From: a virus | Length of the DNA stretch: 64,000 nucleotides | Virus record (IMG/VR): IMGVR_UViG_3300032326_000865 | Span: 5,406 to 69,405 of that record | Reading direction: 5' to 3' (one strand) | Shown: positions 72 to 60,270 of the stretch, piece after piece | How positions within the stretch are numbered: position 1 is the stretch's first letter | Layout: each line of letters starts with the position of its first letter | The notes under the pieces: model-generated | Seen by the model: the letters and a program-made list of their open reading frames with translations, nothing else | Database searches by the model: none | What the model was told of the DNA's origin: nothing | Made by a program: the position numbers and the translations under genes

Positions 72-86
72 AAGCGCAAAGCGCTT
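72..86 (-). promoter_or_regulatory. Conserved hairpin motif, copy 1 (aagcgc-aaa-gcgctt)
   Basis: 6-bp inverted repeat, same motif as at 2706, 8591, 10395 and 60256; loop is AAA here. Confidence 0.55.
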
Positions 87-447
87 AAGGAATTTCGAAG
101 TCTTTAGACTCGGCTAATTCTCCTTTAGCGATAATTGATTCAGGCAATACAGCAGTCTTGAACTCAACCTCTTTAAATGAAACCCATTTTTGTTCCCACG
201 TAGATTTGCCCGTCTTTTGATCGCTATCCGACCATTTTGTAACGCAAAACCCTATTTGAATATCATTGCCGTTATTGTCAGTCTCGTAAATCGGGTCGAT
301 TTTATTCGGCTTTTTAATTTGATAAACATCAAGAAGTCTATCGAAAACCAACTCCCAAGTCTTCTCCATGAAAGAAAAGAAATCTGTTACGATTCCTTCT
401 TCTCCGGGGATGCGACTACTAATAATAGTGACGTTGCACAGAATCAT
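85..447 (-). CDS. Hypothetical phage protein
   Basis: 120-aa ORF in a tightly packed minus-strand run. Confidence 0.7.
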   Translation of the reverse strand: MILCNVTIISSRIPGEEGIVTDFFSFMEKTWELVFDRLLDVYQIKKPNKIDPIYETDNNGNDIQIGFCVTKWSDSDQKTGKSTWEQKWVSFKEVEFKTAVLPESIIAKGELAESKDFEIP

Positions 448-469
448 AATTGCTTTGTTTCACCTTAAA

Positions 470-916
470 TTAAGGAAGGATAAACTGATCAAAATCAGAA
501 GCTTTAGGCACTTCAAATTCATGATCAATAGTCTCATCGCGGTGCTCTGGAGTGATTTTTCTCCTTTTCAGGTAACGATAAACTCGCGCTGCAAACTGAA
601 GCTTGTCGTCAGGCCAATATGTAGAAAACAAAAACAATCCATTAAGGCTATTAAACCTAATGAACGTCTCGTCACAATAATCCTCCCAGTCAGGAGCTTC
701 GCTTTTCCCATTAACGATAAGTGGCCCGTGTCCAAGAGCACAGCAAGTTGTCCCGCATTTGTTTTTTACTTCATTTGGCAGTAATTGACCATCAATGCTT
801 GAAGCAAATAGACTCATATCAAAGTTGATGTTAAACTTCCTAGACATGAGCGCTTTTGCGAGCTTGGCCAAGTTTGAACGCTTTTGTGCGTAAGTGTATT
901 TATTTTTCATTCCCAA
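470..916 (-). CDS. Hypothetical phage protein with CGTxCCALG motif
   Basis: FDMSxF...CGTTCCALGH pattern common in small phage proteins; start may be 910. Confidence 0.75.
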   Translation of the reverse strand: MGMKNKYTYAQKRSNLAKLAKALMSRKFNINFDMSLFASSIDGQLLPNEVKNKCGTTCCALGHGPLIVNGKSEAPDWEDYCDETFIRFNSLNGLFLFSTYWPDDKLQFAARVYRYLKRRKITPEHRDETIDHEFEVPKASDFDQFILP

Positions 917-1275
917 AGTTTTTTTAGTTTTTTTAGTTCTTTTATTCCTGATTCAGTTATTCCGTATTCATTCCAGTTTTCATCATCGTCATGAAAGCGC
1001 TGAATATCTTCCCAGAATCTTAATGAATGCCCCTTGTATTCTTCCTTTAGGAGAGATTCGGGATCTTCAAGAGATCCGACTCCTTTGTATGCTGCCAATC
1101 GCCTGTTATCCACCGCCAAAAGATAACCGCGAGAGTTTTCATTACAGCAACGAGAGAACGCGCACATCGCCCCATCTTGGCCGATATAAACGCACTCTCC
1201 ATCGTTATTTACGGACCTATTACTGTCGTTGTAATAGTTTGCTGTCTCCTCAATGATTTCAATCTTGGTCTTCAT
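907..1275 (-). CDS. Hypothetical phage protein (CVY...CAF...QRFHD type)
   Basis: Overlap-coupled ORF with a recurrent phage motif pattern. Confidence 0.75.
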   Translation of the reverse strand: MKTKIEIIEETANYYNDSNRSVNNDGECVYIGQDGAMCAFSRCCNENSRGYLLAVDNRRLAAYKGVGSLEDPESLLKEEYKGHSLRFWEDIQRFHDDDENWNEYGITESGIKELKKLKKLWE

Positions 1276-1631
1276 GCTGATTGGATGTCTTCCCAGATTT
1301 TATCTGGAATATATTCTCTTGGGGCTGTGTCCATTCTCCTTGCGTGCTTATAGGCTTCTTTCCATTCACCTTTTTTATACAAGGAAAGAACTCGCCTCAT
1401 ATCTTTTCTGTCTGCTACATACATTTTAATCATTCCAATGTTTTTGTTGAGGGTCCATTGATGATTCTTAATTACTTCTGCAAACTTATTGCAGGACTCC
1501 TTGCATGGCTCCATATAATCAAATTGCTTTTTTGATTCGCTTTCTGGATTGGACAATAACCTGCTTGATAAGGTATTGCTGGAATGACAAGCTGTAATCC
1601 ACAAAACCTTTGTGATGTGCGCTTTCTTCAA
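1272..1631 (-). CDS. Hypothetical protein; true start probably near 1515
   Basis: 5' part overlaps the ATPase gene; stop overlaps the next ATG. Confidence 0.55.
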   Translation of the reverse strand: MKKAHITKVLWITACHSSNTLSSRLLSNPESESKKQFDYMEPCKESCNKFAEVIKNHQWTLNKNIGMIKMYVADRKDMRRVLSLYKKGEWKEAYKHARRMDTAPREYIPDKIWEDIQSA

Positions 1632-2691
1632 AGATAGTCTGAACTAGCTCAAATTGACCAGATTCAAACGCCTTGTCAGTGAGGTGCATTGCGCCGTCGT
1701 AATAGTAGGCAACGACATTAGAATCACTAGAATCAACGCGATGGATCTGACAGTCCACTCTGTAGCCAGATTGCTCAAGAAAGTCGCAAGCGTCTTGAAC
1801 CATGAGCTTTTCATCATCAGTCATTTCCTTAATGGCAAATCCAGAAGAGGGATTACGAAGACGAAGAATGTTGGCGATTTTAGGATTCAGTGAAGTTGGG
1901 CGCTTCTTCCAAACTTCATTGACGGTTTCCTCCATTTCTTTGGACCAAGTATTGTCGTAATCAAACTCAGACTCAATACCTTTGGAGGTGATGAGCTTTT
2001 CAATTAGGCTCTTGTCCTTGAGGTGTTTACAAATAGCCACACCTACAGTGTAACGGAACGCGTAGATGTTTGCCATCGTACGGTCTTCCGTCAGGTCAAG
2101 ATGAGAAAGAATCTCGTAAGACCAATTGGCTTGCTGAAGCTCAGAAACTTTAACACCGCGAAACCAAACGTCACCCTTGCCAGTGTAGAAATTGACAGTA
2201 TTGGTCTTAGCAATTGGCTCACGATCACCAATAAAGATACGATCATTATTCTTGTGAGAATCAATGATTTCTGGACCAGTGACGACAATAGAAGTTCCAG
2301 CACTCAAAGGGCCACTTGCCAGAAGGCATACCCCAGACTCGTCCATGGTATTGGACATGAGCTCGCGATATGCTTGATCAACAGTCCACTTGAATCCGTA
2401 GTGAGTCGTGAATGCAAGGTGCTTGCCATTGCAAAGAACACGCTGGAACTCTTGACCACGGAATTCCATTTTCTCGAGACTGAACTCATAAACTTTACCA
2501 GATTCGCAATGGATTGTAACTTCGTGTCCAGTTCGGAGAAGCACTGCGATTGCATACTTAAATCCAGTTCCAAACATTCCAATGCTCTCTTCATTGGTCT
2601 TTACTGACAGACCCATAAGCTCCCAAGCACCGGGATTGATTTCTCCGTTAGTATGGAACACTACGGATTTGTTTTCTTGAATTGTGTTCAT
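1519..2691 (-). CDS. GHKL (HATPase/Hsp90-like) ATPase with a degenerate C-terminal zincin-like motif
   Basis: SIGMFGTGFKYAIAVLLR lid motif, RELMSNTMDE motif, C-terminal IFEESAHH...F. Confidence 0.75.
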   Translation of the reverse strand: MNTIQENKSVVFHTNGEINPGAWELMGLSVKTNEESIGMFGTGFKYAIAVLLRTGHEVTIHCESGKVYEFSLEKMEFRGQEFQRVLCNGKHLAFTTHYGFKWTVDQAYRELMSNTMDESGVCLLASGPLSAGTSIVVTGPEIIDSHKNNDRIFIGDREPIAKTNTVNFYTGKGDVWFRGVKVSELQQANWSYEILSHLDLTEDRTMANIYAFRYTVGVAICKHLKDKSLIEKLITSKGIESEFDYDNTWSKEMEETVNEVWKKRPTSLNPKIANILRLRNPSSGFAIKEMTDDEKLMVQDACDFLEQSGYRVDCQIHRVDSSDSNVVAYYYDGAMHLTDKAFESGQFELVQTIFEESAHHKGFVDYSLSFQQYLIKQVIVQSRKRIKKAI

Positions 2692-2705
2692 TACATTAAA
2701 TGCTC

Positions 2706-2720
2706 AAGCCCGAAGGGCTT
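2706..2720 (-). promoter_or_regulatory. Conserved hairpin motif, copy 2 (aagccc-gaa-gggctt)
   Basis: Compensatory stem change relative to other copies; 15 nt upstream of the ATPase ATG. Confidence 0.55.
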
Positions 2721-2868
2721 TGTTGTTTTATTGATTTAAAAGAACGTGCGACGCAGCCGACCGCTAGCGCTGCGGATGGTCGGGGGTGTTATTCATTGCG
2801 GGGTATTGGGGAGTTATTGCGGACTTGTGGTTTAGAAGGTCTTTCAAGCGGAAGGGAGTGAAGATCCC

Positions 2869-3369
2869 ATGAATCGAATCGAAGCAGCAGAGGAATGGAT
2901 ATCCACCCAATCTGAGGCAGCACGAACGACGCTCGCCAAAGCCATAGCAGGAGCGTGGACTCTGGCGCTTCCACTGTTGCTATCGTTGTCAGGGTTATCC
3001 ACAGCAAACAAAATCCTAGGTAGTGTCCTCTGGGTTTCAGCGACGCTGAATTTATTTCTTCTCGTGCGGGTGTGCTGGCATCGAACACAGAACAGGCGAC
3101 GTGAAGTCGATCAAGCCAAGTTACCTGAACCACCTTCACTTGATGGTTTTGACTTGAGCGTTTTGATCCGATTGGTTGCATACGACGTAGGGTCAGGAGT
3201 TCACAGACTCGCGAACGACATGGGCGTAGAGTCCTTTAAGGTTTCGCACAGCACCGACAAACTGCTGGCCTGCGGCTATGTGGATTACCTCAGAGAATCG
3301 TCGTCCGGTTCGGTTTACCGCGCCAATGCCGCAGGACGTTCGCGGTGTCTCAACCCACCGAAGAAATGA
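2869..3369 (+). CDS. Cassette-borne membrane protein with a C-terminal winged-HTH-like domain
   Basis: GGGAG RBS; two hydrophobic segments; VHRLANDMGV...DKLLACGYV; stop 5 nt before the first attC. Confidence 0.7.
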   Translation: MNRIEAAEEWISTQSEAARTTLAKAIAGAWTLALPLLLSLSGLSTANKILGSVLWVSATLNLFLLVRVCWHRTQNRRREVDQAKLPEPPSLDGFDLSVLIRLVAYDVGSGVHRLANDMGVESFKVSHSTDKLLACGYVDYLRESSSGSVYRANAAGRSRCLNPPKK

Positions 3370-3374
3370 AGAGC

Positions 3375-3504
3375 AACGAACAAGGCGTGCCATACAACCG
3401 CTACCAGCCCTACTGTCGGCGGAGTCTTGGCGTGGCTTCATGGCTTCACCCCCGTTTCGAAGCTGGCTCTCGCTGGTAGCGGTGTATGCACTTTGACGTT
3501 CAGC
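3375..3504 (+). repeat. attC-like site 1
   Basis: AACGAAC...GTTCAGC; left arm tgcCatacaAccgctaccagc pairs with gctggtagcggtgtatgca, leaving two unpaired bases (C, A). Confidence 0.85.
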
Positions 3505-3803
3505 TCATAAAATCCATCGGGGCGCTTTTTGAATAGGTGGGCTCGATTAGGGTCAACGTGCGCCCGCAATCCGCCTTCCAACGGTTTCGGCAGCCGCTCG
3601 AACGTGGTCAGTTGCTTTTCCTGATTTTCCCAGAAACGGATTGAGTATGCCGCGCCGATGATGTTCCCGAGGATCTGATCGACCGGACCGAACACGCCTC
3701 CCTTGTGCTCGTATGGTGTGATTTCGCGGAGATTTGACCACGCGATGTCGATGCGTTGGCCGGGTTTGAGGCTTCCTACAAGTTGGATGAGTCGTTGTTT
3801 CAT
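3438..3803 (-). CDS. Hypothetical protein, antisense cassette gene (MKQRLIQL...)
   Basis: ATG at 3803; C-terminus reads through the right arm of attC1 and stops in its loop. Confidence 0.7.
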   Translation of the reverse strand: MKQRLIQLVGSLKPGQRIDIAWSNLREITPYEHKGGVFGPVDQILGNIIGAAYSIRFWENQEKQLTTFERLPKPLEGGLRAHVDPNRAHLFKKRPDGFYELNVKVHTPLPARASFETGVKP

Positions 3804-3818
3804 GGTGATTCGAGCAAA

Positions 3819-3905
3819 GCTGAACAAGTCGCGGATGGCGACGGCGATCAGCCGTCAATTTGATTTCAATCTCCAGCGCGCCGCGCCATCGCTGGATCGT
3901 TCAGC
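3819..3905 (+). repeat. attC-like site 2
   Basis: GCTGAAC...GTTCAGC; arms gcGgatggcgAcggcg / cgccgcgccatcgc. Confidence 0.85.
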
Positions 3906-4179
3906 TCACTGATTCGGGCGTGTATTCGACGACCGCTTCCATCTTGGCCAAGTAGTGGATTCGAATGTTCCGCGATGGTCTGCCGCGCCCATCGGTTGCC
4001 CAGTAGATCACCTTGACGGAGCCGGACCAATCAGGCTTCGGCTCGAACTGCTTTTCGTCGTCGTAATCGACCTCAACGGTCATCTCGAAGCGCTTGATTC
4101 CTTGCGCTTCCGCGAGGGCGGCGGCGGCTTTGGCGAAACCCTCAAGCGAGGGCGGGATTGTTGGTTTGGTGGCGTTCAT
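3901..4179 (-). CDS. Hypothetical protein, antisense cassette gene
   Basis: 92-aa ORF whose TGA overlaps the R' box of attC2. Confidence 0.7.
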   Translation of the reverse strand: MNATKPTIPPSLEGFAKAAAALAEAQGIKRFEMTVEVDYDDEKQFEPKPDWSGSVKVIYWATDGRGRPSRNIRIHYLAKMEAVVEYTPESVS

Positions 4180-4195
4180 AGGTAGTTCGGGGAAA

Positions 4196-4282
4196 GCTGA
4201 ACAAGAAGATGGTGGAGACGGCGATCAGCCGTCAGATGGAAGCGGAGCTTGTTCCGGCCGCTCCACATCAGGGACGTTCGTG
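4196..4282 (+). repeat. attC-like site 3
   Basis: GCTGAAC...GTTCGTG; arms gatGgtggagAcggc / gccgctccacatc. Confidence 0.85.
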
Positions 4283-4509
4283 CTACGGAATTCCAGAGCC
4301 TCGCGGTTGAGTTCAGGCCGGAGCTTGTATCGACCACAGCAGTTGCACCTCCATTCGGATCGCATCCCGTTGTGGTAGTTGATCTGATCGCCGTAGATGT
4401 TGCGGACGAAGCGGTCCACATGCCCGCCAGTTTTCCAGCAGTAGTGCCGCGCCCGAAGAGCACGAACAAGTCGCGGCAGAGAAACCGCCCATAATCTTTT
4501 CAATTTCAT
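4225..4509 (-). CDS. Small Cys/His protein (RNIYGDQIN...RSEWRCNCCG), antisense cassette gene
   Basis: ATG in the loop of attC4, stop in the loop of attC3; CxxC motif. Confidence 0.65.
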   Translation of the reverse strand: MKLKRLWAVSLPRLVRALRARHYCWKTGGHVDRFVRNIYGDQINYHNGMRSEWRCNCCGRYKLRPELNREALEFRSTNVPDVERPEQAPLPSDG

Positions 4510-4557
4510 TTCATTGGCCTTTCTTGCGCGGCGGTGCCTGCGCTGTTGTCGTTCATC
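4461..4557 (+). repeat. attC-like site 4
   Basis: CACGAAC...GTTCATC; imperfect arms gcggcag..accgcc / ggcggtgcctgcgc. Confidence 0.8.
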
Positions 4558-4753
4558 CAATAATTTGGCATTCGGGCGGGTAGTAATCGAACATGCAGAC
4601 CACATTGTGGTGATCCAGTTTCAGCTTCAGGAAGCAGTCATCCGTTCCGACGACCATTCCCACATGCGGCGTTTTCCCGTCGCGTTCGACCATCACCTCG
4701 CAGCCGAGCGTGAAGGACGTTCCGAACATTTCGTTGATTTCTTCGAGCGTCAT
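4553..4753 (-). CDS. Small SH3/KOW-like hypothetical protein, antisense cassette gene (MTLEEINEMF...)
   Basis: ATG at 4753 just inside the cassette; TGA overlaps the R' box of attC4. Confidence 0.65.
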   Translation of the reverse strand: MTLEEINEMFGTSFTLGCEVMVERDGKTPHVGMVVGTDDCFLKLKLDHHNVVCMFDYYPPECQIIG

Positions 4754-4758
4754 AAGAG

Positions 4759-4845
4759 GATGAACAAGTTGGTGGATGGAACGGCGAGGAAGTCTATTGG
4801 TGAGGCGGCGCTGGTTCGCGCCGTCCATCACCATCGGCGTTCGGC
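4759..4845 (+). repeat. attC-like site 5
   Basis: GATGAAC...GTTCGGC; arms tggtGgatggAacggcg / cgccgtccatcacca. Confidence 0.85.
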
Positions 4846-5084
4846 TTAACTGAAATCTTCCCGTTTTCGTTCCAAACCATCAGCGGCCATTTGTGATCGT
4901 TTCGATTCTTGGACTCGCAAGCCAGGCACACCACCGACAGCAGCTTGTCCCAGGCGTCGCCCATCGTCTCGCCGCTCACCTCCACATGAACAACGAACGC
5001 CGAACAAGGCGCGGCAGCGGCAACCCCCGACCCGTCATCGGTCGGAGTTGCCGGGGTGGATTCTTGGATAGGTTCAGGGGTCAT
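4794..5084 (-). CDS. Hypothetical protein, antisense cassette gene (MTPEPIQEST...)
   Basis: Starts in the loop of attC6 (ATGA overlap) and ends in the loop of attC5. Confidence 0.6.
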   Translation of the reverse strand: MTPEPIQESTPATPTDDGSGVAAAAPCSAFVVHVEVSGETMGDAWDKLLSVVCLACESKNRNDHKWPLMVWNENGKISVKPNADGDGRREPAPPHQ

Positions 5085-5126
5085 GTTCGTTCTCGGTCGG
5101 GGTTGCCTGCGCTTGGGATGTTCTCG
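4999..5126 (+). repeat. attC-like site 6
   Basis: GCCGAAC...GTTCTCG; arms gcggcagcggcaacccccgacc / ggtcggggttgcctgcgc. Confidence 0.8.
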
Positions 5127-5494
5127 GGATCGAATGTTCCGTCCCGGTGGTCGTAGCGAGCGGCCAGATCGGGGATGACTGGCGTGCCTTTCGCGTCGAG
5201 CTTCAAAGTGGCGGCGCGAAACAGCCGTTCGATTTCCGCCACGATCAAGGCACCAGCTTTGACCAGGTTCCGAACAGGATCTTCGCTGGGTCTCCATGCC
5301 TCGTCTTCAAACGGCCAATGGTCTTCGCAGTCGCCCAGATTGTGGCCGTTGTTCCAGAGCACGGCTTCGTGCGTGTAGCACATTGCGGCCACGGCGATTT
5401 CGCCGTGGATGTGCTCGTCATCGTGCGCGGCGGCGTAGCCCAGCGAGCGTTGGTTTGCTCTCTCAAGTTCGATCAGTTCAAGTTCGGTTTTCAT
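5081..5494 (-). CDS. Conserved phage protein (ERxxQ...HDDxH...WP...RNLVKAGALIVAEIERL family)
   Basis: Recognisable widespread phage family; C-terminus reads into attC6. Confidence 0.8.
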   Translation of the reverse strand: MKTELELIELERANQRSLGYAAAHDDEHIHGEIAVAAMCYTHEAVLWNNGHNLGDCEDHWPFEDEAWRPSEDPVRNLVKAGALIVAEIERLFRAATLKLDAKGTPVIPDLAARYDHRDGTFDPENIPSAGNPDRERT

Positions 5495-5628
5495 TTCGTT
5501 GTGATTTCGACGTTTCGGATGATCCATGCGACGATCTCACCAAGCTTCCACATGGCCAGAGGCAGGGAGATTAGGAGCGCGATTCCGAGGACCTTGAAGC
5601 CTCTCCAGATTCCTGAGAATTGATTCAT
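5491..5628 (-). CDS. 45-aa membrane peptide (MNQFSGIWRGFKVLGIALLISLPLAMWKLGEIVAWII...)
   Basis: Hand-translated; ATGA overlap with the next gene. Confidence 0.6.
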   Translation of the reverse strand: MNQFSGIWRGFKVLGIALLISLPLAMWKLGEIVAWIIRNVEITTK

Positions 5629-5795
5629 GCCGGGCTCTCGTCCTCCAGTGTCCGGCGGAACGAGCCGGGTTGTTTCGGGTGCATGTCGTAGTGGGCTCCC
5701 GACCCCGAGAGAAATCCCGGCTTTAGTTCGACGTGCGAGGCGGCTTCCCGCCCGTCCCGCGTTTTGTATTTTTTTGTGATGTCAATCATGGTTTT

Positions 5796-6098
5796 TTAAA
5801 TGACTTCTCTAAACAAACGGTAGTTTGCTTTAGCTTTGTGATTCTCTGGTTCTTGAGTGAAATCAACATGATGATTTCTTATACAAATCCAGCATTCAAG
5901 CGGTTCTTTGTCTTCAATTAGATCAAATGAACTGTATTCTGATGATGATTCAAAAAACTGACCATTTACATTATGGTTTAAAGCTTCACCTGTTGTAAGT
6001 CCGATTGATACAACAGGTTGACTTCCCGGAGCATCAATACATAAAATTCGAGCTAGCTCTCCGTTTCGATAACGGTATTTTTTATTCAGCCGGATTTT
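5796..6098 (-). CDS. Hypothetical phage protein (KKYRxRNGxxARILCxD family)
   Basis: Motif match; start at internal ATG (MKIRLNKK). Confidence 0.75.
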   Translation of the reverse strand, partial: KIRLNKKYRYRNGELARILCIDAPGSQPVVSIGLTTGEALNHNVNGQFFESSSEYSSFDLIEDKEPLECWICIRNHHVDFTQEPENHKAKANYRLFREVI

Positions 6099-6627
6099 CA
6101 TTGTTTTTTCTAAATAAGTTTTCTTTTCTGGCTTCCTTCCAAGCTTTAATTGCTTTTTCTGATTCATTTGTTTCATCTGGTCCATCCAGCCAAGCTAGAA
6201 TCTCAAGCGAAATAGCAAGCCTGTCAGCAAGTTCTCTTTCTGCATTTAGCTTTACTTGTAGTTGCCGGTTAATCGAAGAGAGCTTGGACTTGTTTTTGAT
6301 CTCTTCCAGCTCTTCTTCTAGGCTTTTGATTGTTTCTGCTTGTTCTTTTTTGAACTCTTCACAGCAAGATTCTGTTGAAGTGAGTCCTTCTAAATTAAAG
6401 CCTTCCCTGAGAAGCTTCACTTCTTCTTCAAGTTCTCGCATTCTTTTCGATTGAAGCGCATAAAGACCACGACGGAAATCTAAGTCTGAAGAAGTTTCTA
6501 TGAAATCTTCTTCTAGCTTTGCAATGATTGGTTCAATTACTTCAAGGAAGAAGTCAGGATCGTACGATCCTTCGTCGTTGATTATTGAAACAATTGAATT
6601 TGTTATTGGTGTCCGCGGGTCACTCAT
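6082..6627 (-). CDS. Coiled-coil protein of the TPRTD / AERxLADxLA paralog family
   Basis: MSDPRTPIT..., LNAERELADRLA, AIKAWKEAR shared with the 61.0-62.7 kb genes. Confidence 0.75.
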   Translation of the reverse strand: MSDPRTPITNSIVSIINDEGSYDPDFFLEVIEPIIAKLEEDFIETSSDLDFRRGLYALQSKRMRELEEEVKLLREGFNLEGLTSTESCCEEFKKEQAETIKSLEEELEEIKNKSKLSSINRQLQVKLNAERELADRLAISLEILAWLDGPDETNESEKAIKAWKEARKENLFRKNNENPAE

Positions 6628-7039
6628 TGGTCCAGAGGTTTAGTGTTTTCAGGAAGGCTTCAGCACGTTGGGCGGCGGTTGCTGACCTGAATCTCTGCAT
6701 GTCGCACGCATTATTTGACGACAATCTGGCACCAACAACCGACTCTAACACCTCGGAATAATGATGGTCGTTTTCATCATTCAGCGACTTTTCCGCAGCG
6801 TGCATCGCGTTGAGGTCGTTGAGGTAGTCTAGCAAGCGGATGCGGGAGACTTCAGACCCGTGAAACACTTCCGTTCGCGGAATCTCCTCAATGTCGAATG
6901 GAGGTTTTCCGACCGGAGTCTTAAGATGCTTTTCGGGGAGCGATGAGCCCCATGCTCCATACACGGGGAGATTCAAGTAGATCATGTCTGTCCACCCGCA
7001 AGCCTCTGCGATGGCGATTCTTTGTGCTTCTGGTGTCAT
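6620..7039 (-). CDS. Phage protein (QRIAIAEACGW...DYLNDLNAMHxAE family), copy 1
   Basis: Paralog of 62973-63311. Confidence 0.8.
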   Translation of the reverse strand: MTPEAQRIAIAEACGWTDMIYLNLPVYGAWGSSLPEKHLKTPVGKPPFDIEEIPRTEVFHGSEVSRIRLLDYLNDLNAMHAAEKSLNDENDHHYSEVLESVVGARLSSNNACDMQRFRSATAAQRAEAFLKTLNLWTNE

Positions 7040-7377
7040 TATTCAGATTTCTGATTGCAAATGAAGTCAGTTACGTATTTAGCCAGTTCGTAAGGGCTGA
7101 ACGGAGAATACATTCTTTGTACTATTGCGTGTGCCAATTGTTCTTTAAGAAGGTGCATTGCTGCTATTTGAATTGCAGGAAGCTTCAACTCTTCTAGGCT
7201 GCAAATAAACGACATGGCTTTGTGAAACTCTCCGCTTGTATGTAGCCAGAGTCCATCCTTCCTGTTGCTTTCCCAATTGCACCCATCTGCGTAGGGGGAG
7301 TCTACTTTACCGCACTCAACGTATCGTTTTCCGATTTTCCTGAAGATTGGTTCTCTTGTGTCTTTGATGTGATTCAT
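7039..7377 (-). CDS. Hypothetical phage protein
   Basis: 112-aa coupled ORF. Confidence 0.7.
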   Translation of the reverse strand: MNHIKDTREPIFRKIGKRYVECGKVDSPYADGCNWESNRKDGLWLHTSGEFHKAMSFICSLEELKLPAIQIAAMHLLKEQLAHAIVQRMYSPFSPYELAKYVTDFICNQKSE

Positions 7378-7568
7378 TTTTCGAAATGATGTGCATTACC
7401 AAAATGATTGTGAGGATAAACATAATCCTATACGCCATTTACTTTTGAGAAAGAAACACCCCGGTCCATAAGGACAGAGCTACGGGGCTTTATTTTTGAT
7501 CAACTTCAGCTCTAAGAAGTCGGAGACGGTTCATGGTCTCTTCTCTCTGTTTTCCTTGCTACTGGAAA

Positions 7569-7757
7569 TTATTCTTCAGAGAGGAATGGTCTTCCTCCCC
7601 TTTGGTGCAATGAGCTAAGCCATCTGATTTGGTTTGAGCTTAGCTCTGATTCTGGTGTGCGTTCGCACAATAATTGACAGAACCATTTATCTTTCTCGTT
7701 GATTAGGTCTTCATCCAGCATGTATTTCAATGCCTTAATCAGTTCTTTTGTCTGCAT
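7569..7757 (-). CDS. Hypothetical protein
   Basis: 62-aa coupled ORF. Confidence 0.6.
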   Translation of the reverse strand: MQTKELIKALKYMLDEDLINEKDKWFCQLLCERTPESELSSNQIRWLSSLHQRGGRPFLSEE

Positions 7758-7957
7758 TAGACCATTCGGTGTGGCGTCGTCTTGATCTTGTGGTAACCCT
7801 TACGATGCGCTTCCTTGTGAGAGGCTTTGTTCTGCTTGTGTTCTTCAAGCATTTCTTGATGACGGTCGTGTGGACGCAGCGATTGTTTACGCTCCGCTTC
7901 AAATACCGGATTATACGTCACGGAATACTTGACTTCTTGGTTGATTTTCTTTTTCAT
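7757..7957 (-). CDS. Basic hypothetical protein
   Basis: AGGAG RBS, 66 aa. Confidence 0.55.
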   Translation of the reverse strand: MKKKINQEVKYSVTYNPVFEAERKQSLRPHDRHQEMLEEHKQNKASHKEAHRKGYHKIKTTPHRMV

Positions 7958-8017
7958 ACTCCTGTTGATGCCCCTGTTGCGTGTTGTTGTGTCTCTAACG
8001 TGATTGACGTTAGTAAA

Positions 8018-8057
8018 TAAAAAGCAGGTCCACCTTAATAGATGGACCTGCTTTTTT
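8018..8057. terminator. Bidirectional intrinsic terminator
   Basis: aaaagcaggtcca / tggacctgctttt flanked by A and T tracts, just after the 8063 stop. Confidence 0.8.
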
Positions 8058-8062
8058 GTTGC

Positions 8063-8497
8063 TTAGAAAGCTTCGTCTTCAGCCTCACCAGCGCCGAATG
8101 CTTCCTTGAAGTCCTCGGACTGCTTCAGGCGCTCATATGCGTCAGCGGCTTCTTGCGTCGCGATTACCTTACGCACGCAGTAGGTGGCCGGTGCTGTGCA
8201 ACCACGTGTGCGGGTTCCGTCAGGACGCTCCTTGTCCCAGCTGCGGATCACCATGATTTCTCCCAATTGAGAGGCGATGTCCACCGGGAGACCAGTGGTG
8301 ACAATGCGGGTTCCCTTGGAAGCGGCACGGAGTAGTGCCATCTGGGATTCGCTGGTGAGACCGTGGACAATCTTGATCTGTCCTGCGATCTTGTTGATTG
8401 CGAAGTTGCTCATCAGTGCGTCGTAGTCTGCTTTGTCACGGGTGTGGAGGACGGCTGGCGGCAGTTCGTTTTGGATCTCGTCTTCGATGCTGTTCAT
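8063..8497 (-). CDS. Hypothetical early protein
   Basis: 144-aa ORF with its own terminator. Confidence 0.75.
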   Translation of the reverse strand: MNSIEDEIQNELPPAVLHTRDKADYDALMSNFAINKIAGQIKIVHGLTSESQMALLRAASKGTRIVTTGLPVDIASQLGEIMVIRSWDKERPDGTRTRGCTAPATYCVRKVIATQEAADAYERLKQSEDFKEAFGAGEAEDEAF

Positions 8498-8590
8498 TTG
8501 TCTGTTTTGTTGTGACCTATGGTCGGTTTATTGACGAAGAGCAGGAGGCAACTCACCTCCTACTCTTTCATCTGAATCTCTTAATTACCA

Positions 8591-8603
8591 AGCGCGAAGC
8601 GCT
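8591..8603 (-). promoter_or_regulatory. Conserved hairpin motif, copy 3 (agcgc-gaa-gcgct)
   Basis: Abuts the stop of the 581-aa gene, upstream of the 8497 ATG. Confidence 0.6.
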
Positions 8604-10348: not shown

Positions 10349-10394
10349 GTTGTGTATTCGGTTGTGTCCTTATGGACTGGTTGACATAGCCTCA

Positions 10395-10407
10395 AGCGCG
10401 AAGCGCT
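10395..10407 (-). promoter_or_regulatory. Conserved hairpin motif, copy 4 (agcgc-gaa-gcgct)
   Basis: 47 nt upstream of the 581-aa gene start in a divergent intergenic region. Confidence 0.6.
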
Positions 10408-10485
10408 CAATGCAGCTGTATTTTCAGGCTGATACGCACCTGAGGACGTTGTGGACAAATTCCACTGAAAGCTGTAGTTCTGTGT

Positions 10486-11460: not shown

Positions 11461-11510
11461 CTGATGACAGAGCCTAGTCCAAACGGATCTGAACTAGGCT
11501 CTGATAATCA
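11461..11510. terminator. Long hairpin, possible terminator
   Basis: cagagcctagt / actaggctctg inverted repeat after the minus-strand gene run. Confidence 0.5.
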
Positions 11511-11574
11511 AGGATGACGATTCTTGTTCTGGATATTGGCTAAAACCCCGTGTTTTGACCAATACCCATGGACA

Positions 11575-52100: not shown

Positions 52101-52368
52101 TGCTCAGGCTTGGTACGAGAGGGATGCGATTGGTGTCCGTGAGTTCAATCCGGGTGTCGTTGAAAGTGTGGCTTCCGCAACAGCCCCTACATCGGTTATT
52201 TACGATGCGATTGATACTGGGGTGCTTTCCTACCAAGCAATCGACGCTGGAGCTTCCACAATGGACATCCTAACCTACATGGCATCCGAAGCGATTCCAT
52301 TCCTAAGAGATTACAGGTCAGCAAAAGCAGCTGAACTAAGGGAAACAATCAAAGAAGACAAGAAGTAA
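37111..52368 (+). CDS. Giant (5085 aa) putative internal virion / large polyvalent protein
   Basis: 15.3-kb ORF; Ala/Gly-rich hydrophobic N-terminal part with EGVEE, zincin AHEVIH, helical C-terminus. Confidence 0.8.
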   Translation: MNFEEEFGVVPMDFGFDQFDAQSLQQEPEDESEPDLTNVETMLLSGDWRDNPESRAEMSDTASSLIHDALRTSTDKKVSRKVRREGKEVDEEVPVLGPNGRFSEAGRDYLERSRQILKAAANDENGGLVYNELTGKTEVASWVKDAMRQAPQKPEEIFPQLEEYRNEQKALDENNPIDLEGYAKYTGKDLNSFSEGEKQAFTKQVAQMSFNPEEMGEEEIGRMVEGMPVINPANRHEINKVESWISSLEGFSDIDKKIMIDDYHDTIDRDIVDYARMFSAADAGPIESIWNRPLMQELEAHLQSGGNGVEFLRANQERMTKDAYGVTSEVAGTFRDAVMSIGTGATWLAGAAIDVLPGIDGVGELASRPAQLWGELAEESASAYRNQKLFSVAGIDINRRDITELAGQIGAFAALGGLGALMAKSTGLAAARAALAKGGEVAGAIGKVAAAESAMASSSLAVQANLSKFLGEKTAKFLTASATDTTAYLGGLQASGTSFGKTYNEIYKATGDAEEAYREASIQGVSDGLSALIATSVMNRVAPGMERVLGAPEGSLSGSLIQRMRASGASKAAMEETKQIFSQLKMSKELTNQFGKDLLKYTRDSMAKSGLRGIGPAGDILAEGVEESFDEMLSDVIEVIIDDSKTWSEDGWPQIQQNWRSYVKAAVLGAIGGGIGSSYGAAKSGVKALGSDTQRKEIIKNNVAKEWDLLKSNVSQFENRDFLLNIAGQAPVKIGEILASDMSINEKSKYLVDFARKGQLAFGSRNQKKAEVPAAGTVPTGTAPTKATGPSVTPSVAPDSNEGILSSIGYSLPAGRTWKSDLSITESANPSKGNEDGVTVTPLIVGGASMVGAKVTTVDSSGNQSSRYVSASEAATLVKDKRVAANYQSVGQEKALSGSDVRIESWSDVAPAPSQISTGEILSQMGYSPGENQSWNDEVETNLEFMERTPNGDLNPITIGGVPYAGAKLTKKDANGNETVSYISAAEAANLSTDNKKSYEKSVAELDANVPKWTKQNEKGTDTSGTDGQMQGTGTNRAEVAGDAEGGNLDEADGNRGDAERGSPAAAEEAEEVKAEKKTGSIRVVAQSERAESLREKLSNNEEVKAAIAAGVDFVIVESLDQLSEIAEGSPIQESAFTRGFDGAAYVTKNGEELVVLNVSIDEKSDSEVLEIVAHEVIHLAEFRFRGTKDGLKLWKNAIQIFDPQSPYFDKEFNSFMEKEYPEFNGLSLQLKLSEASRAFVQGKLNKFSFAGENPFLQYLEDFLNYVRSAYGEFSDASKYFQEIEKAYAEMSVASETNEAAKKNEELKSQFVPEVTQNERDYVAIEANEILDDSGIKFSVKPRPEKASIPANASLFEGDEDVWIEVSTNEIGVSPEFIDRVIADEKIDDKEQHIADKVSSLVSKSGVSLQALTPSTAPTAEVDPISETPKYIVPEDELNGTTDSAGGKWSSSSENKNIYTYTPGKGMVIDAKVGDVVSIGGDTDNVLVFLKVDPDGAIVYVKVNMTQFGTTDENSGEFKSEIHKLNKNWQKNRLLSLTKMVRPQLASILAGDTSDASINALRKILKAVMNEVAPGKEFIESTDPNTNFIQSVWKKTKKLVTKANGKTETKIEQVPFMEVNLASTIQELKSLLGSANLTNPKAEFLVSMEVSRLLSKWVEEEQIHLITMDHSSFSEIKISNFVKEVAKNKDHPLYALFVQTVKERAPDSDPVVDRRNPRGLNPEQRYIVGSELLRKVQQIRAGGSFSEQANTDARRLVYSLAQDAMAGKSLFKSAAEMIRRYMDRIHKVLWFRSIRGQLSVKQLEILDILDAEYRRRNIRGDVDYTKDKVTEFMVNRMNSYYASTEDEIASVAREFSNPLIKLRGVINQFDAFRFSDIIDVNDKFELFIVPQVRQFMEDSKLYDMAEIDEAILSLNEKESFRKVWTETYIAKQVMESREAELEFDPTEFFKMLEGNKFDPDGVMFQILKGIPNTPEGSEFLADHLDRAYQNARANREQVENELIIDELRLIQNLDPRKSEDRIALLEKAKFYGMPLDVDSFENGTYFDLNGLQGKLLSRAEMMLQDPDILNKVAKLMGSSKNPKIASYSEKLDQLKVIENAALIRKNRVRSSINKDGVLEFNNVNFPFEGSGAIASLKQQREARESGADMELARERYLKLRAYLDSVDSFNNKIETMKERAFGYVRPNTKDHGLYIRDTRNFVNNKMVLGPREDIIEAATTPSEVFFYNYYPSTRGARTVAGDGYPKNWSSDRDSTKDKDVTQLHVTTIDSNASFLGRNARMNYYIADLMGNVPGSFNRELYNSSAGFAFEGSENDYDQTTYENPEVAFPRFDGFKELKNVQAKLDEDKQPNASGLFNIIAYITKAEAWLDHIDQRIDPKKIITEVAGMQTPAGRASIILQPRFKDLRENLEFTKNLVIQKLSPYVKYNANSEGDFASSFERDKEGKLILMSDSAAEVFKAIKESLRTGKGTKFSEMYEAQMAANSDVKSTRRMVREFVNPKWIKNVEREAIQTIRNAAYRPDHPEMLQLRDAILDPAIMRNMGFAMKYFSENASNYWVGPMYATDALKDYSKISGRGYEQKAVKGGIKKGVIKEGKNKGEVYTQELPAQPTDIVFSYGESGNDDPRVGKSDSGEFGVTLDSYLQDKFSEKLTGAELAALTEDAPEQSLKMWLTSQLMFIGYRSQTNYGNVDDARNFAFDVMRKQLTLEGNTADLVETAIAGMFPSTQRGTKRFETLVKFFYRNNPQYIKNYKLLENDPLERFDRFIAESFVVDLLEFKRRFEESALKQARFKSNETIAVLSNAIDASSHPKEEKDEMKRVVSKGLISGDVLAYDSRLVDQYNIYLGESPVVSMMLMNLVGETIIVQPTKKQTTQAGTEIGLRVIPGKEGQPNIVWVPNSGASRLDQQIAIQTILSHYGEDPAMKETIVSLANSIRNTLLPAFDLDQTERAIQHHLDRIPAEKRKSFTGSALSHFIKLSRITDEISPSDITGTSAFNIINYKEKFSPGFASDISLITSVFTDPKYKEAFDRGYIGTDVAQEFGLPDAAVDGLNAIVKRLRETDGDYVYWAEENATEDVVGDEMSSLGESYEDLDQEFDTSAGRADPEVSEMMKTYGITEDELERKTKSDEDRKKNSTANANKLIEILDPDRLKAQPWEEVVPPSDMVIFNALGSLLANVKSKNDMLDPVLRSEYREKRNEPSRLTESPVSILRSERETSSLFEPIFPELNRPDARNVNQSMFVGSAINLTRPNVHGHTMLKLMMDATRSRTQQAAWIAKIPDVALAIDSAVIPKLKSMNLGVTPRIELEIPLDDDFMNHASDLIPQLASVREQVEKSLLKISETEQMLLDRIQEANEILNIPLKWSNEETITEEMAESNSLKDEMVSLIQRLAQTISGASNETLAYEQAMTAHAIQAAIESKYGDFMPEMSSRISDLYRLIRKRDSSDNVLASSEFNKTTESISRHLEWFNTATQQINKVANNVVDGRLSQIGIDADKNKPSRRKILSPLGRNPQNVSLADVDSFAKALNSGRITANKVLFNSIFNEASNQFTSRILDFAERKSGKAKVLFQKGSESLEIQGKKKGEPQIGIQGDKAKAGIIEFLKKAKDLNRDQIFNLVNSGFGEEYFGGDNNVFKYLNMIALGTVEAHELFQRKAETGEERTRRERAEYTKRDAEKHLGVIRDQRVKMFDTGGSAYIGKFRHVMKQRQKDGKPMAANIEISVVDPLVQIKEFESTADKFARRDKWRQSENSRKNFYILREALTRSLDEIADGRVDAMYKKLRGQTEEIGGFNPVKIVMDAQRRIQIEDSVFKDQLNKVQGLVADADLRELSAEALAFMTNSSDVLYTIKGPQLQQKIEDAIKAKSLKLSFEEKEALKEQINSKYQPGDKRYVSEERKEVLKRALRTGYINNLTDQEKAKIKSDIEADFKNLIDAKLKANRLPQNFNSRRNLIGELFNDPENGGKVILVPQDAKARLMRAFPNVVNERNANSTMREVALKALSQSSAYPSFMDQNGPPDAKFRGSKFKLTKDNADLTIEEAGRLFSDRFKVGLSNYLQKTRNGKEVDLTGENSKRAVNFYGTLVEKLVYAYNAEKLVKADGSDTRAQIEIEKILTSIDNQGNAVGNLGFDSNDQTFQDFDLIGTFALAFAELESEQIMMNLVSGLSIQDGYVPQNLLKYVHHQDARNRSKFMKSKIARDVAIHLQAYLERGFDNSSGRSGHQAAHKSAQDAIAAASRKFLGIQGSAKDQAIGYMLAQLKGLNDASGMTLTQALGAWKKTIDAGWQDLKDLDRAQKNAFKSKAGRFLNANHVDMIRDIPLIESIYSKLQKSGAFDDFGLVDYSNEFIGEEEAKDQNSRKVIKALEEALKAQTKNQEGVKNYADAIYDQLLDAYNATAVTRAVTSKRLEEEDKTGNKQDDEGLSPTVRTYSSVPIKLAYAANPDSAEVRTPTEGQWIPDPADVVDIRKSAFYGGFGRQEREVENAPVLRPISLNGLAAPFSILEDSLYRTNITPNYLILRKLLGRVQNPSGVPIVDKSLLISPRLMLSSEYKSKMKDFKIAVSAVASEIETVIFNDSQVGVVNTAFAQAANFASSVFVVRSLASLQQLWNQTLPAATFFVIKKLSIGKHSEAYDFLKILSKLIGSMAADFAKSPRNFLGGHENKTQFHHRVTKFTKEVSPYIYFRGVDGQDQSREALRHQTRFNQSKFQSWGGRFVKEYQNTGEAALDFTIGSGERLISKAIFLTELMSEMKRANTINSPNTVEDLLSNFNSRNIPVLANRMAEIKVSDMMGQSDVSKKSTLFQNRSDSPVWSSLWKSLTRFSNHTASTSSNMTALLPALKHGDEATKQEALENIVGTLGQNVMFQFFKIHTLLPLALSVFYMFDGDDEEEASRKAQEKANEILGTEESGPVASMFKQLAFGSEKELFQSFKQDEAALASAKAELLGKTAMEFTQAVPYVGVLFGYSPISSFAKPIVNNSAEEIMSFMSRFGGKKPIPVAQAWYERDAIGVREFNPGVVESVASATAPTSVIYDAIDTGVLSYQAIDAGASTMDILTYMASEAIPFLRDYRSAKAAELRETIKEDKK

Positions 52369-58177: not shown

Positions 58178-58185
58178 TAGAATGT

Positions 58186-58218: not shown

Positions 58219-58225
58219 AATGGAA

Positions 58226-59164
58226 TCACTTGCTCTTTCGGAGCGGTTTAATCTCAATCGGTTGACCATTGTCCTTGCGCACGGTCAGGTTCTTAAGGTC
58301 GATGACAAGTCTTCCTGTTGGGATGCTGGAAGCATTTCCCATCAGTTCAAACCATTGATCTTCATTGAAGATGATGTATCGAACTTTGTTCTCCTTGTGC
58401 GCTTGAATCAGGTCTTCCGCTTGATTCTTGGAACGGATATTCCGAACAACTTGATCGTCCTCCATCTTTTTGATGATCGAACCCAAATTGCGAATATGCT
58501 TAGGACCAAGACCGAAGGTCTCCGCTTTTCTCAGTAGCAAATCCTGAGACTCCTTTGGAATCTTGATGAAGAATGCTTCTTTGTGATGCGAGTAAGGAAG
58601 ATTAAATCTCTTATCCTTGTAAGCTTCGTAAACCTTCTCTGCGGTGTAGATGGTATTGTAGCTCTTCTCGGTAAGCTCGACGACCTGAGAGGGGTCAAAT
58701 TCCTCACCGAAATGATTTCGAAGAGAGGAAATAATGGAGCCGAGCATCCAAGCAGATTTCTCATCAACAACGCCTCCAAGATCGCGAAGTTTCAGCACAT
58801 TCGAGACAACCTGATAAGCGTGAACCAGTTCAGGTGGCTTGTTTGGATTGATCGTACAAACCCCGTCTGGAGTGATAATGAACGAATCATCGTTCGACAT
58901 CGCACCCATGAGTTGGATGGCTGCACTCTCAACGATTTCATTTTTAACGATGGAGGATTCACTGGTAACTTCATAAAGGAAGTCACTAAGTCTGTCCTGA
59001 ATGGATTCAGGGTAGTCTTCCACGTTAATATCAATATCCAGCCTTCTGCGCTTTGAAATCACCTCAAGAACGACATCCAGAGGGAGGTCGTATTCTGAGG
59101 CGATGACCGGAATGTTTTCTTCCGTGAGGACGGAGCCTTGGTGGTATAGTGGTGTTTCGTGCAT
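58226..59164 (-). CDS. Putative DNA-binding regulator (LmbU-like HTH region)
   Basis: AWMLG...SYNT...V...R..LPYSHHKE pattern. Confidence 0.55.
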   Translation of the reverse strand: MHETPLYHQGSVLTEENIPVIASEYDLPLDVVLEVISKRRRLDIDINVEDYPESIQDRLSDFLYEVTSESSIVKNEIVESAAIQLMGAMSNDDSFIITPDGVCTINPNKPPELVHAYQVVSNVLKLRDLGGVVDEKSAWMLGSIISSLRNHFGEEFDPSQVVELTEKSYNTIYTAEKVYEAYKDKRFNLPYSHHKEAFFIKIPKESQDLLLRKAETFGLGPKHIRNLGSIIKKMEDDQVVRNIRSKNQAEDLIQAHKENKVRYIIFNEDQWFELMGNASSIPTGRLVIDLKNLTVRKDNGQPIEIKPLRKSK

Positions 59165-59221
59165 TTTGGTTAATCCCCCTTTCGGGGGGAAGTTTTAGCC
59201 TGTCTAATCGACCACTAGGGA

Positions 59222-60193
59222 TCAAGCAGAAAGAAGAGCTTCGCCCTGCTTGCGGAACTTTTCCCAAGTGGTGTCGAAGTTCGCTGCCACAAATCGCTTA
59301 ACCTGAGCACCAGTTCCCCATTCGGACTGGTAAAGCTGATTGTCGCTGTTGCGGCTAGATTCGTGGCTGTAGAACTCAGTAAGGCCTTGGAAGGCATCAA
59401 GACGAGTCCGACCACTGTTGCCCTTGCCGCCGTCAAAAAGTTCAATGATGCGAGCCGTGCGTTGGCGAATACCGTTGGTCAGATTGCCCGTATTGCGGCA
59501 CTCGAGACCAGTAATCCAAGCGCGAGCTTCATCACGGGAGCACGGGGTCTCATCAGCATTGGTCAGGAGGTGCTGGAAGTAAGCAGAGGTGCCAACAAAG
59601 GAATCAATGGCGTCAATCACCCGCTGGATATTAACGTCGATCAGTGCAGTGTGCTTTGCCTTACCAAGTACGTTACCAGACTGGAGGTTTGCAGCAAACG
59701 TATTGGCGCAAACCGTGCAGATGGTGGAGTAGCAGGCAGTAAGGGCGCAACTCTTGTCAAACGAGTCAAGGATGTTCACGTAGTCCTTAAACTCACGATC
59801 TTTGATTCGGAAGCCTTCAGTAACCTTGATGGTTGCGAACACCTTACCGCGATTGTCGGTGGTGCCAGCAGAAATCACTTCGTAAGGAGTCTCACCCATG
59901 CCCTGCTCAATCACCTTCCAAAACCCGTCAATAGAGGTAGGATGATAGGTAGAGCCATAAGGATCACCCACCGGAAGGTTGTCGTCAGTAGCCAGAAGGA
60001 TCTTCCAGTCTGGGTCTTCAATGATCCGCTCCTGCTCAAAGGGTCCACCCGGAACCTTGTAGCAAATAGGAGTTTCGCGCACCTCGAAAGGCATGCTGTT
60101 TTCTCGATTGATTACCGGGAACACCTTGGTAAGCCGATGCCAAGCTTGCTCTTTGCCTGCTTGAATGTCCCGATTAGTAAGTCCGTGTGCCAT
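59222..60193 (-). CDS. DUF932-family phage/plasmid protein
   Basis: AWHRL, GKVF, SFD, VCANT, KHT motifs. Confidence 0.85.
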   Translation of the reverse strand: MAHGLTNRDIQAGKEQAWHRLTKVFPVINRENSMPFEVRETPICYKVPGGPFEQERIIEDPDWKILLATDDNLPVGDPYGSTYHPTSIDGFWKVIEQGMGETPYEVISAGTTDNRGKVFATIKVTEGFRIKDREFKDYVNILDSFDKSCALTACYSTICTVCANTFAANLQSGNVLGKAKHTALIDVNIQRVIDAIDSFVGTSAYFQHLLTNADETPCSRDEARAWITGLECRNTGNLTNGIRQRTARIIELFDGGKGNSGRTRLDAFQGLTEFYSHESSRNSDNQLYQSEWGTGAQVKRFVAANFDTTWEKFRKQGEALLSA

Positions 60194-60255
60194 ATTGTTG
60201 TCCTTTCTTGTTTTGTTTTTGTTTTTCTTGAAGTTAGCAACTTCATTATTTGATC

Positions 60256-60270
60256 AAGCGCGAAGCGCTT
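60256..60270 (-). promoter_or_regulatory. Conserved hairpin motif, copy 5 (aagcgc-gaa-gcgctt)
   Basis: Between a terminator and the DUF932 start. Confidence 0.65.

Follow-up and report, generated by a model that had tools for sequence, protein, structure and literature searches.

What do the short hairpins that recur ahead of the minus-strand genes of this virus do? The stretch analysed here, called the window throughout, comprises 64,000 nucleotides (nt), namely bases 5406–69405 of the 69,405-nt IMG/VR virus record IMGVR_UViG_3300032326_000865, which derives from an uncultured freshwater phage. A sequence-only reading had pointed to five copies of one small hairpin upstream of its early genes and had proposed that they are promoters of the kind known from coliphage N4. 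We find that the element is maintained as a hairpin by compensatory changes, that it has a strict polarity and that it recurs at conserved positions in related genomes. We read it, tentatively and with a little less than even confidence, as a structure-constrained, N4-type hairpin signal on the template strand with a promoter-like role.

The pattern CAAGCSCRAAGSGCT has five matches in the window, all on the plus strand and none on the minus strand, which bears out the five copies in one orientation first reported (with coordinates 1–2 nt off). This number is well above chance, as 100 dinucleotide shuffles of the window gave a mean of 0.00 and a maximum of 0 matches. The whole record likewise holds five forward matches, with no reverse match and none for a backwards control. 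On the sense (minus) strand of the neighbouring genes, the element reads A-GCGC-TTC-GCGC-T-TG.

The five copies are all oriented towards minus-strand open reading frames (ORFs). The distances given here run from the last base of the motif to the next minus-strand ORF start, on an ORF map made with a simple, crude script of our own. The copy at 10393–10407 (AGCGC-TTC-GCGCT-TG in the sense direction) heads the early block and precedes, by 45 nt, the GTG start of a gene of 581 amino acids (aa), in a divergent gap of 137 nt between this gene (start at 10348) and a 180-aa gene on the plus strand (10486–11028). The copy at 8589–8603 overlaps the TGA stop of the 581-aa gene and lies 92 nt upstream of a 144-aa ORF (8063–8497). 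The third, at 2705–2719 (AGCCC-TTC-GGGCT), is found 14 nt upstream of a 390-aa gene (phrog_8203, 1519–2691), downstream of a weak terminator-like hairpin at 2764–2748. Its stem has GCCC/GGGC in place of GCGC/GCGC and is indeed the compensatory change that had been noticed at the outset. The copy at 71–85, with a TTT loop in the sense strand (AAA in the template), overlaps the TAA stop of a 120-aa ORF (85–447) and precedes by 14 nt an 89-aa ORF that extends past the edge of the window. Finally, the copy at 60255–60269 is located 62 nt upstream of the DUF932 gene (59222–60193) and 14 nt downstream of a terminator-like inverted repeat on the minus strand (60284–60293 and 60307–60316), whose 10-nt arms are 100% complementary and are followed by a T run in the sense strand. 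The five distances agree with the 15–94 nt initially given.

A relaxed pattern raises the number of matches in the window to seven, against 0.20 expected, and also recovers a GGCC/GGCC copy at genome position 3833, outside the window. One of the additional matches is a sixth copy on the minus strand (58507–58521, AGACC-TTC-GGTCT-TG, stem GACC/GGTC), which falls within a 312-aa ORF (58226–59164). The other is a near-copy on the plus strand (28103–28117, AGGCC-TTC-GGTCT-TG) with one G–T pair, within a 172-aa ORF of the late block, and may be due to chance. The 11-nt core alone, with one mismatch allowed, occurs eight times against 6.8 expected, that is at the chance level; the flanks therefore belong to the signal, which is the full 15-mer.

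The relatives provide evidence that the element is constrained as a hairpin. They were gathered through the DUF932 protein as nine and then 28 viral-contig loci with 53–67% identity; ten related records were taken whole, and the motif scan covered 29 viral records totalling 850,116 nt. The scan pattern AGNNCTYYGNNCNNG leaves two inner stem pairs free, for which Watson–Crick pairing at both is expected by chance in about one case in 16. On the early-sense strand both free pairs are Watson–Crick in 51 of the 54 matches, compared with only one of the seven on the opposite strand. The 51 paired matches correspond to 50 distinct sites in 16 records, which are not phylogenetically independent and belong to relatives that were all found through one protein. 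Six stem types are represented (GCGC 22, GCCC 20, GGGC 4, GCAC 2, GACC 1 and GGCC 1), and a fifth pair, A–T, extends the 4-base-pair (bp) G/C core in 45 of the 50 sites. The stems covary between genomes. Moreover, two or more stem types coexist within single genomes in several cases. One and the same reader must then accept all of them, which argues for base pairing rather than for the recognition of half-sites.

The loop has a polarity of its own. The sense loops of the 50 sites are TTC (38), TCC (8), TTT (3) and TCT (1). A census of 176 GNNC-NNN-GNNC hairpins, in which the loop was left unconstrained, gives 39 TTC and 13 TCC in the sense strand against no GAA and two GGA. It follows that the loop on the template strand is G-R-A and that a C:G pair closes it, and the assignment of the GAA-type loop to the template strand in the sequence-only reading is upheld.

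We numbered the sites with the loop centre at −11, as in N4. Between −77 and +80, the informative columns among 43 non-redundant sites are only those from −18 to −1, together with a TG at +8/+9. Six bases, A(−17), G(−16), C(−13), G(−9), C(−6) and G(−3), do not vary among the 50 sites, in part because the scan pattern itself prescribed several positions. The further counts are T(−5) in 45 sites, K(−4) in 43, R(+1) in 41, G(−1) in 40 and A(−2) in 32, and C is found at −10 in 46. Position −8 of the sense strand (C 26, G 22, T 2) changes with the stem type, and +1, 11 nt downstream of the loop centre, is A in 21 sites, G in 20, C in five and T in four; the invariant or near-invariant Gs are those at −3 and −1. 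Positions −19 to −17 are frequently TAA or TGA. A start-like NTG lies exactly at +7 to +9, 9 nt past the invariant G, in 28 of the 50 sites, behind the GAG at −3 to −1. TTG is its commonest form, and some of these triplets begin real genes while several begin ORFs of only 1–5 codons. We treat TKGAG and the downstream TG as parts of the signal. It should also be mentioned that the 390-aa gene has a mini-ORF, ATG-TAA, across its real ATG at 2685–2693 of the window, that a mini-ORF TTG-TCA-TGA overlaps real starts in relatives and that a comparable ATG-AAG-TAA overlaps the gp2 start at the N4 promoter P2.

The positions of the hairpins are conserved as well. In five complete genomes (G000, G001, G006, G007 and G008), they occupy the same five places among the early genes: before and after the gene of about 581 aa, which is thus flanked on both sides, and before the genes of about 390 aa, of about 75–89 aa and of DUF932. 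These syntenic positions hold across genomes with about 50% protein identity. At the DUF932 place, a covarying hairpin (GCGC, GCCC or GGGC) is found upstream of the orthologue in eight of the first nine related loci, and it is absent or replaced in other clades. The hairpin at the head of the block lies in the divergent intergenic region. In G000 it is separated from the opposite-strand gene by 79 nt; G001 and G003 have the same layout, with gaps of 63 nt and about 165 nt, respectively. The conserved 180-aa gene is opposite in strand to the early genes in all eight genomes with a tblastn match, and because of this constant opposition we place the beginning of the early block at the 581-aa gene. 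By eye, the 180-aa protein has an N-terminus resembling a helix-turn-helix (HTH), and it is possibly a small terminase or a regulator.

How close is this element to the promoters of N4? In the N4 record, the stretches that we take to be P1 and P2, from their positions and from features given in a review of this phage, read GTTGC-TTC-GCAAC-TTATGG and GAAGC-TCC-GCTTC-TTTTGG on the sense strand. According to this review, the early promoters P1–P3 are read by the injected virion RNA polymerase (vRNAP) gp50 and are conserved from −17 to +1 around a GC-rich heptamer centred on −11, in which the non-conserved stem bases only have to pair (PMC4496689). The review also states that the closing G:C pair and, within the loop, its 3′ A and its 5′ G are needed for extrusion and stability, that the polymerase reads −11A/G, −10G, −8G and +1C, and that gyrase and EcoSSB are required (PMC4496689). 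The hairpins of the window and its relatives share with N4 a 5-bp stem with a 3-nt loop, the GC-TYC-GC heptamer on the sense strand, the 5′-G-R-A template loop closed by a C:G pair and variable inner stem positions that only pair. Their polarity with respect to the downstream genes, the compactness of the signal, which lacks −35 and −10 elements, and the short distances to genes are also shared. On the other hand, A at −17, G at −16 and −3 and the GAG at −3 to −1 are invariants of their own.

The template loop is also a familiar physical object. Mini-hairpins of the d(GCGAAGC) type, with GNA triloops, are described as very stable DNA structures (PMC13037366). Copies of the GCGC and GGGC types carry GCGAAGC letter for letter on their template strand, and the other copies keep C-GRA-G. 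This is a physical motif and not a function, and its extra stability is not captured by our folding run: nearest-neighbour DNA folding gives −5 to −6 kcal/mol for both strands, with no difference between them.

The hairpin constraint, the polarity, the conserved positions ahead of early genes and the likeness to P1 and P2 are demonstrated. An action at the DNA level, a role as promoter and the identity of the reader are what we infer. In the mechanism that we propose, the 18-nt unit (R-A-GSSC-TYC-GSSC-T-K-G-A-G in the sense strand) would be a compact, strand-specific start signal. Its template strand would fold into a G+C stem of 4–5 bp, closed by a C:G pair and capped by a G-R-A triloop of the d(GCGAAGC) kind, and negative supercoiling would extrude this hairpin. 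A phage-specified reader, which could be a polymerase or else a factor that works on one, would recognize the loop, the invariant ends of the stem and the 3′ flank TKGAG, and would start transcription of the downstream cassette; it may enter the cell with the DNA. We favour such a promoter-like DNA signal because the loop rule is the complement of what would matter in RNA and matches the N4 DNA, because the polarity is strict, with one copy heading the early block and another following a terminator, and because no competing host-type promoter signal is seen.

Several observations weigh against this interpretation. Firstly, of the bases read by the N4 polymerase, the −8G is kept in only 26 of the 50 sites, and +1 of the sense strand has the G of N4 in 20, with A in 21. 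Secondly, in spite of searches of the genome and its relatives, we detected no N4-like, T7-like or crAss-like RNA polymerase. Thirdly, about 11 of the 24 sites of the complete genomes have an upstream stop codon at 6 nt or less, and only one of the 50 sites has a canonical terminator just upstream. From this we place most sites within operons, about half of them abutting stop codons, where an element for RNA processing or stability would be expected. At least one copy (58507–58521) is even within an ORF. The strand asymmetry itself rests on published knowledge of GNA loops and not on the folding computed here. Lastly, the sister clade described below retains the giant protein of the lineage but lacks the motif. 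Of the N4-like promoter first proposed, the hairpin constraint, the polarity, the positions and the likeness to P1 and P2 therefore stand, whereas a matching polymerase was not detected and −8G and +1C are kept in only part of the sites. Similarly, the remark that a copy follows a terminator is correct for 60255 and does not extend to a rule.

The genomic arrangement also differs from that of N4. Six or seven sites are scattered here among early and replication genes that span about 20 kb, compared with three at one genome end in N4, the upstream terminator is absent at most sites, unlike N4, and a gp50-like or T7-like polymerase is not detectable. The Pseudomonas phage LUZ7 offers a further parallel. 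In this phage, nine early start sites are reported, most of them with hairpins in which a stem of 4 bp or more carries a conserved 3-nt loop, and GC-rich hairpins also serve the middle promoters, which are read by a second phage polymerase (PMC9163698). The likeness lies in the many hairpin sites and in the preference for G near the start, and the nine early sites together with the middle promoters indicate that many scattered sites are not foreign to hairpin promoters. LUZ7 encodes both a vRNAP and an RNAPII, and neither was found here.

The intercistronic placement raises the question of whether the element acts as RNA instead. In this case, a sequence-specific hairpin would form in a polycistronic early transcript or in its 5′ untranslated region, where a protein of the phage or of the host would bind or cleave it. 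It could set mRNA ends, protect the cistrons next to it, or serve as a signal for antitermination or translation. Many sites do lie exactly between a stop and the next gene (upstream ORF end at 0–6 nt in about 11 of 24), with TAA or TGA often occupying −19 to −17 and a terminator preceding only one of the 50. The NTG at +7 to +9 in 28 of 50 sites, spaced from the GAG at −3 to −1, would suit a role in translation, and no polymerase was found that would read a DNA hairpin. Small stable intercistronic RNA hairpins are familiar from the RNase III sites of T7 and the CUUCGG hairpins of T4, and the present elements resemble them in having one orientation, in lying between cistrons and in often directly following stops. 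They differ from the T4 hairpins by their 3-nt UYC loop, in a register that allows no C(UUCG)G tetraloop, and from the T7 sites by a stem that is far too short for RNase III. To our knowledge, a UUC or UCC pyrimidine triloop has no special stability in RNA, which counts against an RNA-level role, and no G–U pair is seen at the free stem positions in the 54 sense matches, although the stems are short. The complement of the loop, by contrast, is the classic stable GNA loop of DNA (PMC4496689, PMC13037366). Furthermore, the 10393 copy lies in a divergent gap with no sense gene upstream, and another copy lies 14 nt after a terminator.

Translation signals were considered in this context. With the same crude script, motifs resembling a Shine–Dalgarno (SD) sequence precede only 5 of the 62 ORFs here, compared with 21 of 39 in N4, and they precede 2/48, 1/46 and 1/46 ORFs in three further genomes (among G007, G008 and G009). 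It is improbable that the host depends on SD pairing. The leaders are rich in A and C, as in ACCAACCAACAACCAATAGAAA, which precedes DUF932 genes. A reading of GAG-N6-NTG as a ribosome site is weakened by this rarity of SD use, by the several NTGs that begin ORFs of 1–5 codons and by the predominance of TTG among them. An antitermination hairpin of the lambdoid nut/boxB type was rejected too: boxB has a 5-bp stem and a purine-rich RNA pentaloop with boxA upstream, while the RNA loop here would be of 3 nt and all pyrimidine, and no conserved box is found between −77 and −19. Taken as a whole, an action as RNA, including the RNA processing site that the sequence-only reading had listed as an alternative, is possible and seems less probable to us than the promoter-like role.

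A DNA-level structure need not be a self-sufficient promoter. The hairpin or a cruciform could assist or control the host RNA polymerase, either as an upstream or spacer element or by binding a small regulator of the phage. Such a structure is in keeping with the covarying stem and with the GRA loop of the template strand, no phage polymerase was detected, and small proteins that look HTH-like by eye are encoded nearby. Nevertheless, no −35- or −10-like element is found at a constant spacing from the hairpin. The early region shows no excess of sigma-70-like sites (10 versus 12.0 expected), and the TAnnTTTG box that a host of the Bacteroidota type would use is not enriched either. We accordingly regard a role limited to helping the host enzyme as unlikely. 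The sequence-only reading had also raised a dyad operator next to a TTG. With the TTG taken as the −35 element of a sigma-70 promoter, this alternative is disfavoured: no −10 element follows TKGAGR by 16–18 nt, where the best −10 score averages 2.56, compared with 2.65 at control offsets, and reaches 4/6 in 5 of 43 sites. No column there is conserved, the only conserved position beyond the unit being the TG at +8/+9, and the covarying stems argue against a dimer operator or a plain repeat.

Could the hairpin be an intrinsic terminator, or else a repeat, mobile or due to chance, that plays no part at gene starts? It is a short G+C hairpin that directly follows stops, and our terminator scan flags the copy at 71–87 on the sense strand, where a T run follows, as well as 2706–2720, on the plus strand and hence antisense to the genes. 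The 3′ flank is T-K-G-A-G-R and not a T run, which occurs in the sense strand only at copy 71, and an intrinsic terminator was rejected on this ground. Conservation of the loop, of the stem ends and of the flanks exceeds by far what a terminator would need, the positions are syntenic at about 50% protein identity, and the shuffled windows yielded no match. Termination or chance is thus very improbable. By our criteria, the only site with a terminator upstream is the 60255 copy.

If the promoter-like signal is read by a phage polymerase, where might this enzyme be encoded? A tblastn search of the 29 records with the vRNAP and RNAPII of N4 returned nothing at E ≤ 1. PF00940 has no match in six frames of the five complete genomes, a search in which the control genomes were silent too. 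Twenty early-block proteins, and six more, showed no polymerase or sigma factor in PHROGs. The plausible place that remains is the giant ORF of 5085 aa at the end of the structural block (37111–52368, plus strand), whose orthologues in relatives have 4161–5977 aa, and this is the sole location in which an unrecognized polymerase could still hide. In hhalign comparisons, the family of this giant protein gave probabilities below 1.5% with N4 gp50 and below 1% with a profile of nine Schitoviridae vRNAP sequences covering the RNA polymerase module (RNAP) and C-terminal domain (CTD). Its probability was also below 1.5% with the structural protein gp077 (2180 aa) of phage phi14:2, presumably a crAss-type virion polymerase. 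Searches of PHROGs and Pfam with the halves of the protein gave nothing significant, a PDB sequence search gave only noise (E of 0.11 or worse), Pfam at E ≤ 1 gave no consistent match for the central segments of three orthologues, and no shorter homologues were found for residues 1400–3900. The ESM Atlas returned viral hypothetical proteins, the nearest family-bearing clusters being LPD38 or LPD39. An HExxH motif near residue 1175 has a weak SprT-like match (E of 0.005, below the cut-off), a glycine-rich, membrane-like stretch is found near residue 400, and a G-D-x-D at 1820–1823 is invariant.

Two apparent likenesses to N4 were discarded. The stretch MFDGDD, aligned with motif C of N4 by BLASTP (E of 0.8), is placed by the structure model in an inter-helix loop of an all-alpha domain, and the similarity of residues 4453–4480 to residues 3171–3195 of N4, seen with BLASTP and hhalign, disappeared against the nine-sequence profile. 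The model covers the C-terminal 1186 aa, folded with 14 orthologues (predicted local distance difference test, pLDDT, of 77; predicted template modelling score, pTM, of 0.76), and is almost all helical. Foldseek found nothing at E ≤ 0.001 for it, with weak rows for 8vb2_A, a T7-like ejectosome protein (probability 0.28), and for ABC transporters. In a wide VIA-align search, the best Z was 6.1 over 51 residues, and the longest alignment, again with 8vb2_A, had Z of 4.6 over 238 residues. The 8vb2_A alignment is not evidence of kinship. The C2 domain of N4 gp50 is described as large and mostly helical with no known structural homologue (PMC13434306). The helical C-terminal domain of about 1200 aa recalls this description, with no homology demonstrable.

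The giant protein resembles the giant polyvalent virion proteins in its very large size, its place at the end of the structural block and its HExxH motif (PMC5512222, PMC13434306). It differs from N4 gp50, which is one of them, in having no detectable polymerase module. One of these sources confines N4-like RNAP modules to N4-like phages and prophages (PMC5512222). Residues from about 1190 to 3900, some 2700 in all, are left unfolded by our model, and a polymerase recognizable only from its structure may lie there.

The sister clade (G009 and G010, loci L075–L082), which keeps the giant protein, has another hairpin in place of the motif. On its early-sense strand we find TTTAG-CCAA-CTAAA, with a 5-bp stem and a 4-nt loop; G009 has seven close copies, five of them perfect, located 0–11 nt before ATG codons. 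A further covarying hairpin, CCAGATG-GCTC..(loop)..AGCC, is seen upstream of DUF932 in this clade. A broader scenario can be drawn from all of this: hairpin-promoter transcription would extend beyond N4-like phages, with early genes starting at template C-GRA-G mini-hairpins; the polymerase would have no detectable likeness to T7/N4-type or two-barrel enzymes and would most plausibly reside in residues of about 1190–3900 of the giant protein; and its specificity would have co-evolved with the motif, with TTTAG-CCAA-CTAAA as the counterpart in the sister clade. Taken together, this chain of assumptions is improbable, to about the degree that we assign to the host-polymerase alternative.

The genes fall into two blocks on the ORF map. 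The record has a 123-nt terminal repeat. The structural block, on the plus strand, includes a weak TerL match, a tail protein and the giant ORF, and the early/replication block, on the minus strand, encodes a DnaB-like helicase, an Erf-like annealing protein, MazG, a ferredoxin-like protein and DUF932, along with many proteins of unknown function. The 581-aa gene (8603–10348, minus strand, GTG start) belongs to no known family. The N-terminal half of its product is conserved, its AlphaFold2 model is poor (pLDDT of 59) and it has no match in Foldseek, Pfam or PHROGs. A tRNA-Met (CAT anticodon) at 15781–15854 on the plus strand, found by ARAGORN and scored at 62.6 bits by Rfam, has the putative large terminase on one side and the next structural genes on the other; apart from this one tRNA, Rfam at gathering cut-offs reports nothing in the whole window. 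An ORF of about 80 aa (60340–60580, minus strand) ends just before the terminator-like repeat upstream of the 60255 hairpin. The C-terminal half of its product resembles, by eye, an HTH of the DnaA-domain-IV type, and our greedy ORF picker had skipped it for an overlapping plus-strand ORF. In the complete relative G001 (L031–L034), the arbitrary ends of the record split the giant gene, with its last 1659 aa encoded at 191–5170.

The lineage has no counterpart in the isolate collection searched. Among 50,697 records of isolate phages, no match was obtained to positions 1–12000 of the window (megablast) or to TerL or the C-terminal half of the giant protein (tblastn), and no relative of the 390-aa protein was found in the viral contigs. 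The nine listed runs that share positions 500–10499 of the window are all DNA or metagenome runs, kept as contigs. N4-type hairpin promoters are themselves already known; what is new is their occurrence, if confirmed as such, in a lineage outside Schitoviridae with no detectable single-subunit RNA polymerase, together with the invariant flank proper to the unit. A non-exhaustive search of the literature yielded no paper on such hairpins outside N4-like phages.

The promoters of N4 are the textbook case of a hairpin-reading polymerase, and their occurrence is linked to a single phage family with its giant virion polymerase. The same hairpin grammar is kept here by compensatory changes in a lineage with no isolate match and no recognizable polymerase. 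If the sites are promoters, there would be either a new polymerase or redirecting factor within the injected protein of 5085 aa, or host polymerases that can be steered to hairpins. If they act as RNA, they would represent an intercistronic signal of a new, sequence-specific kind. In both cases, the 18-nt unit provides a concrete, synthesizable test object for an uncultured phage.

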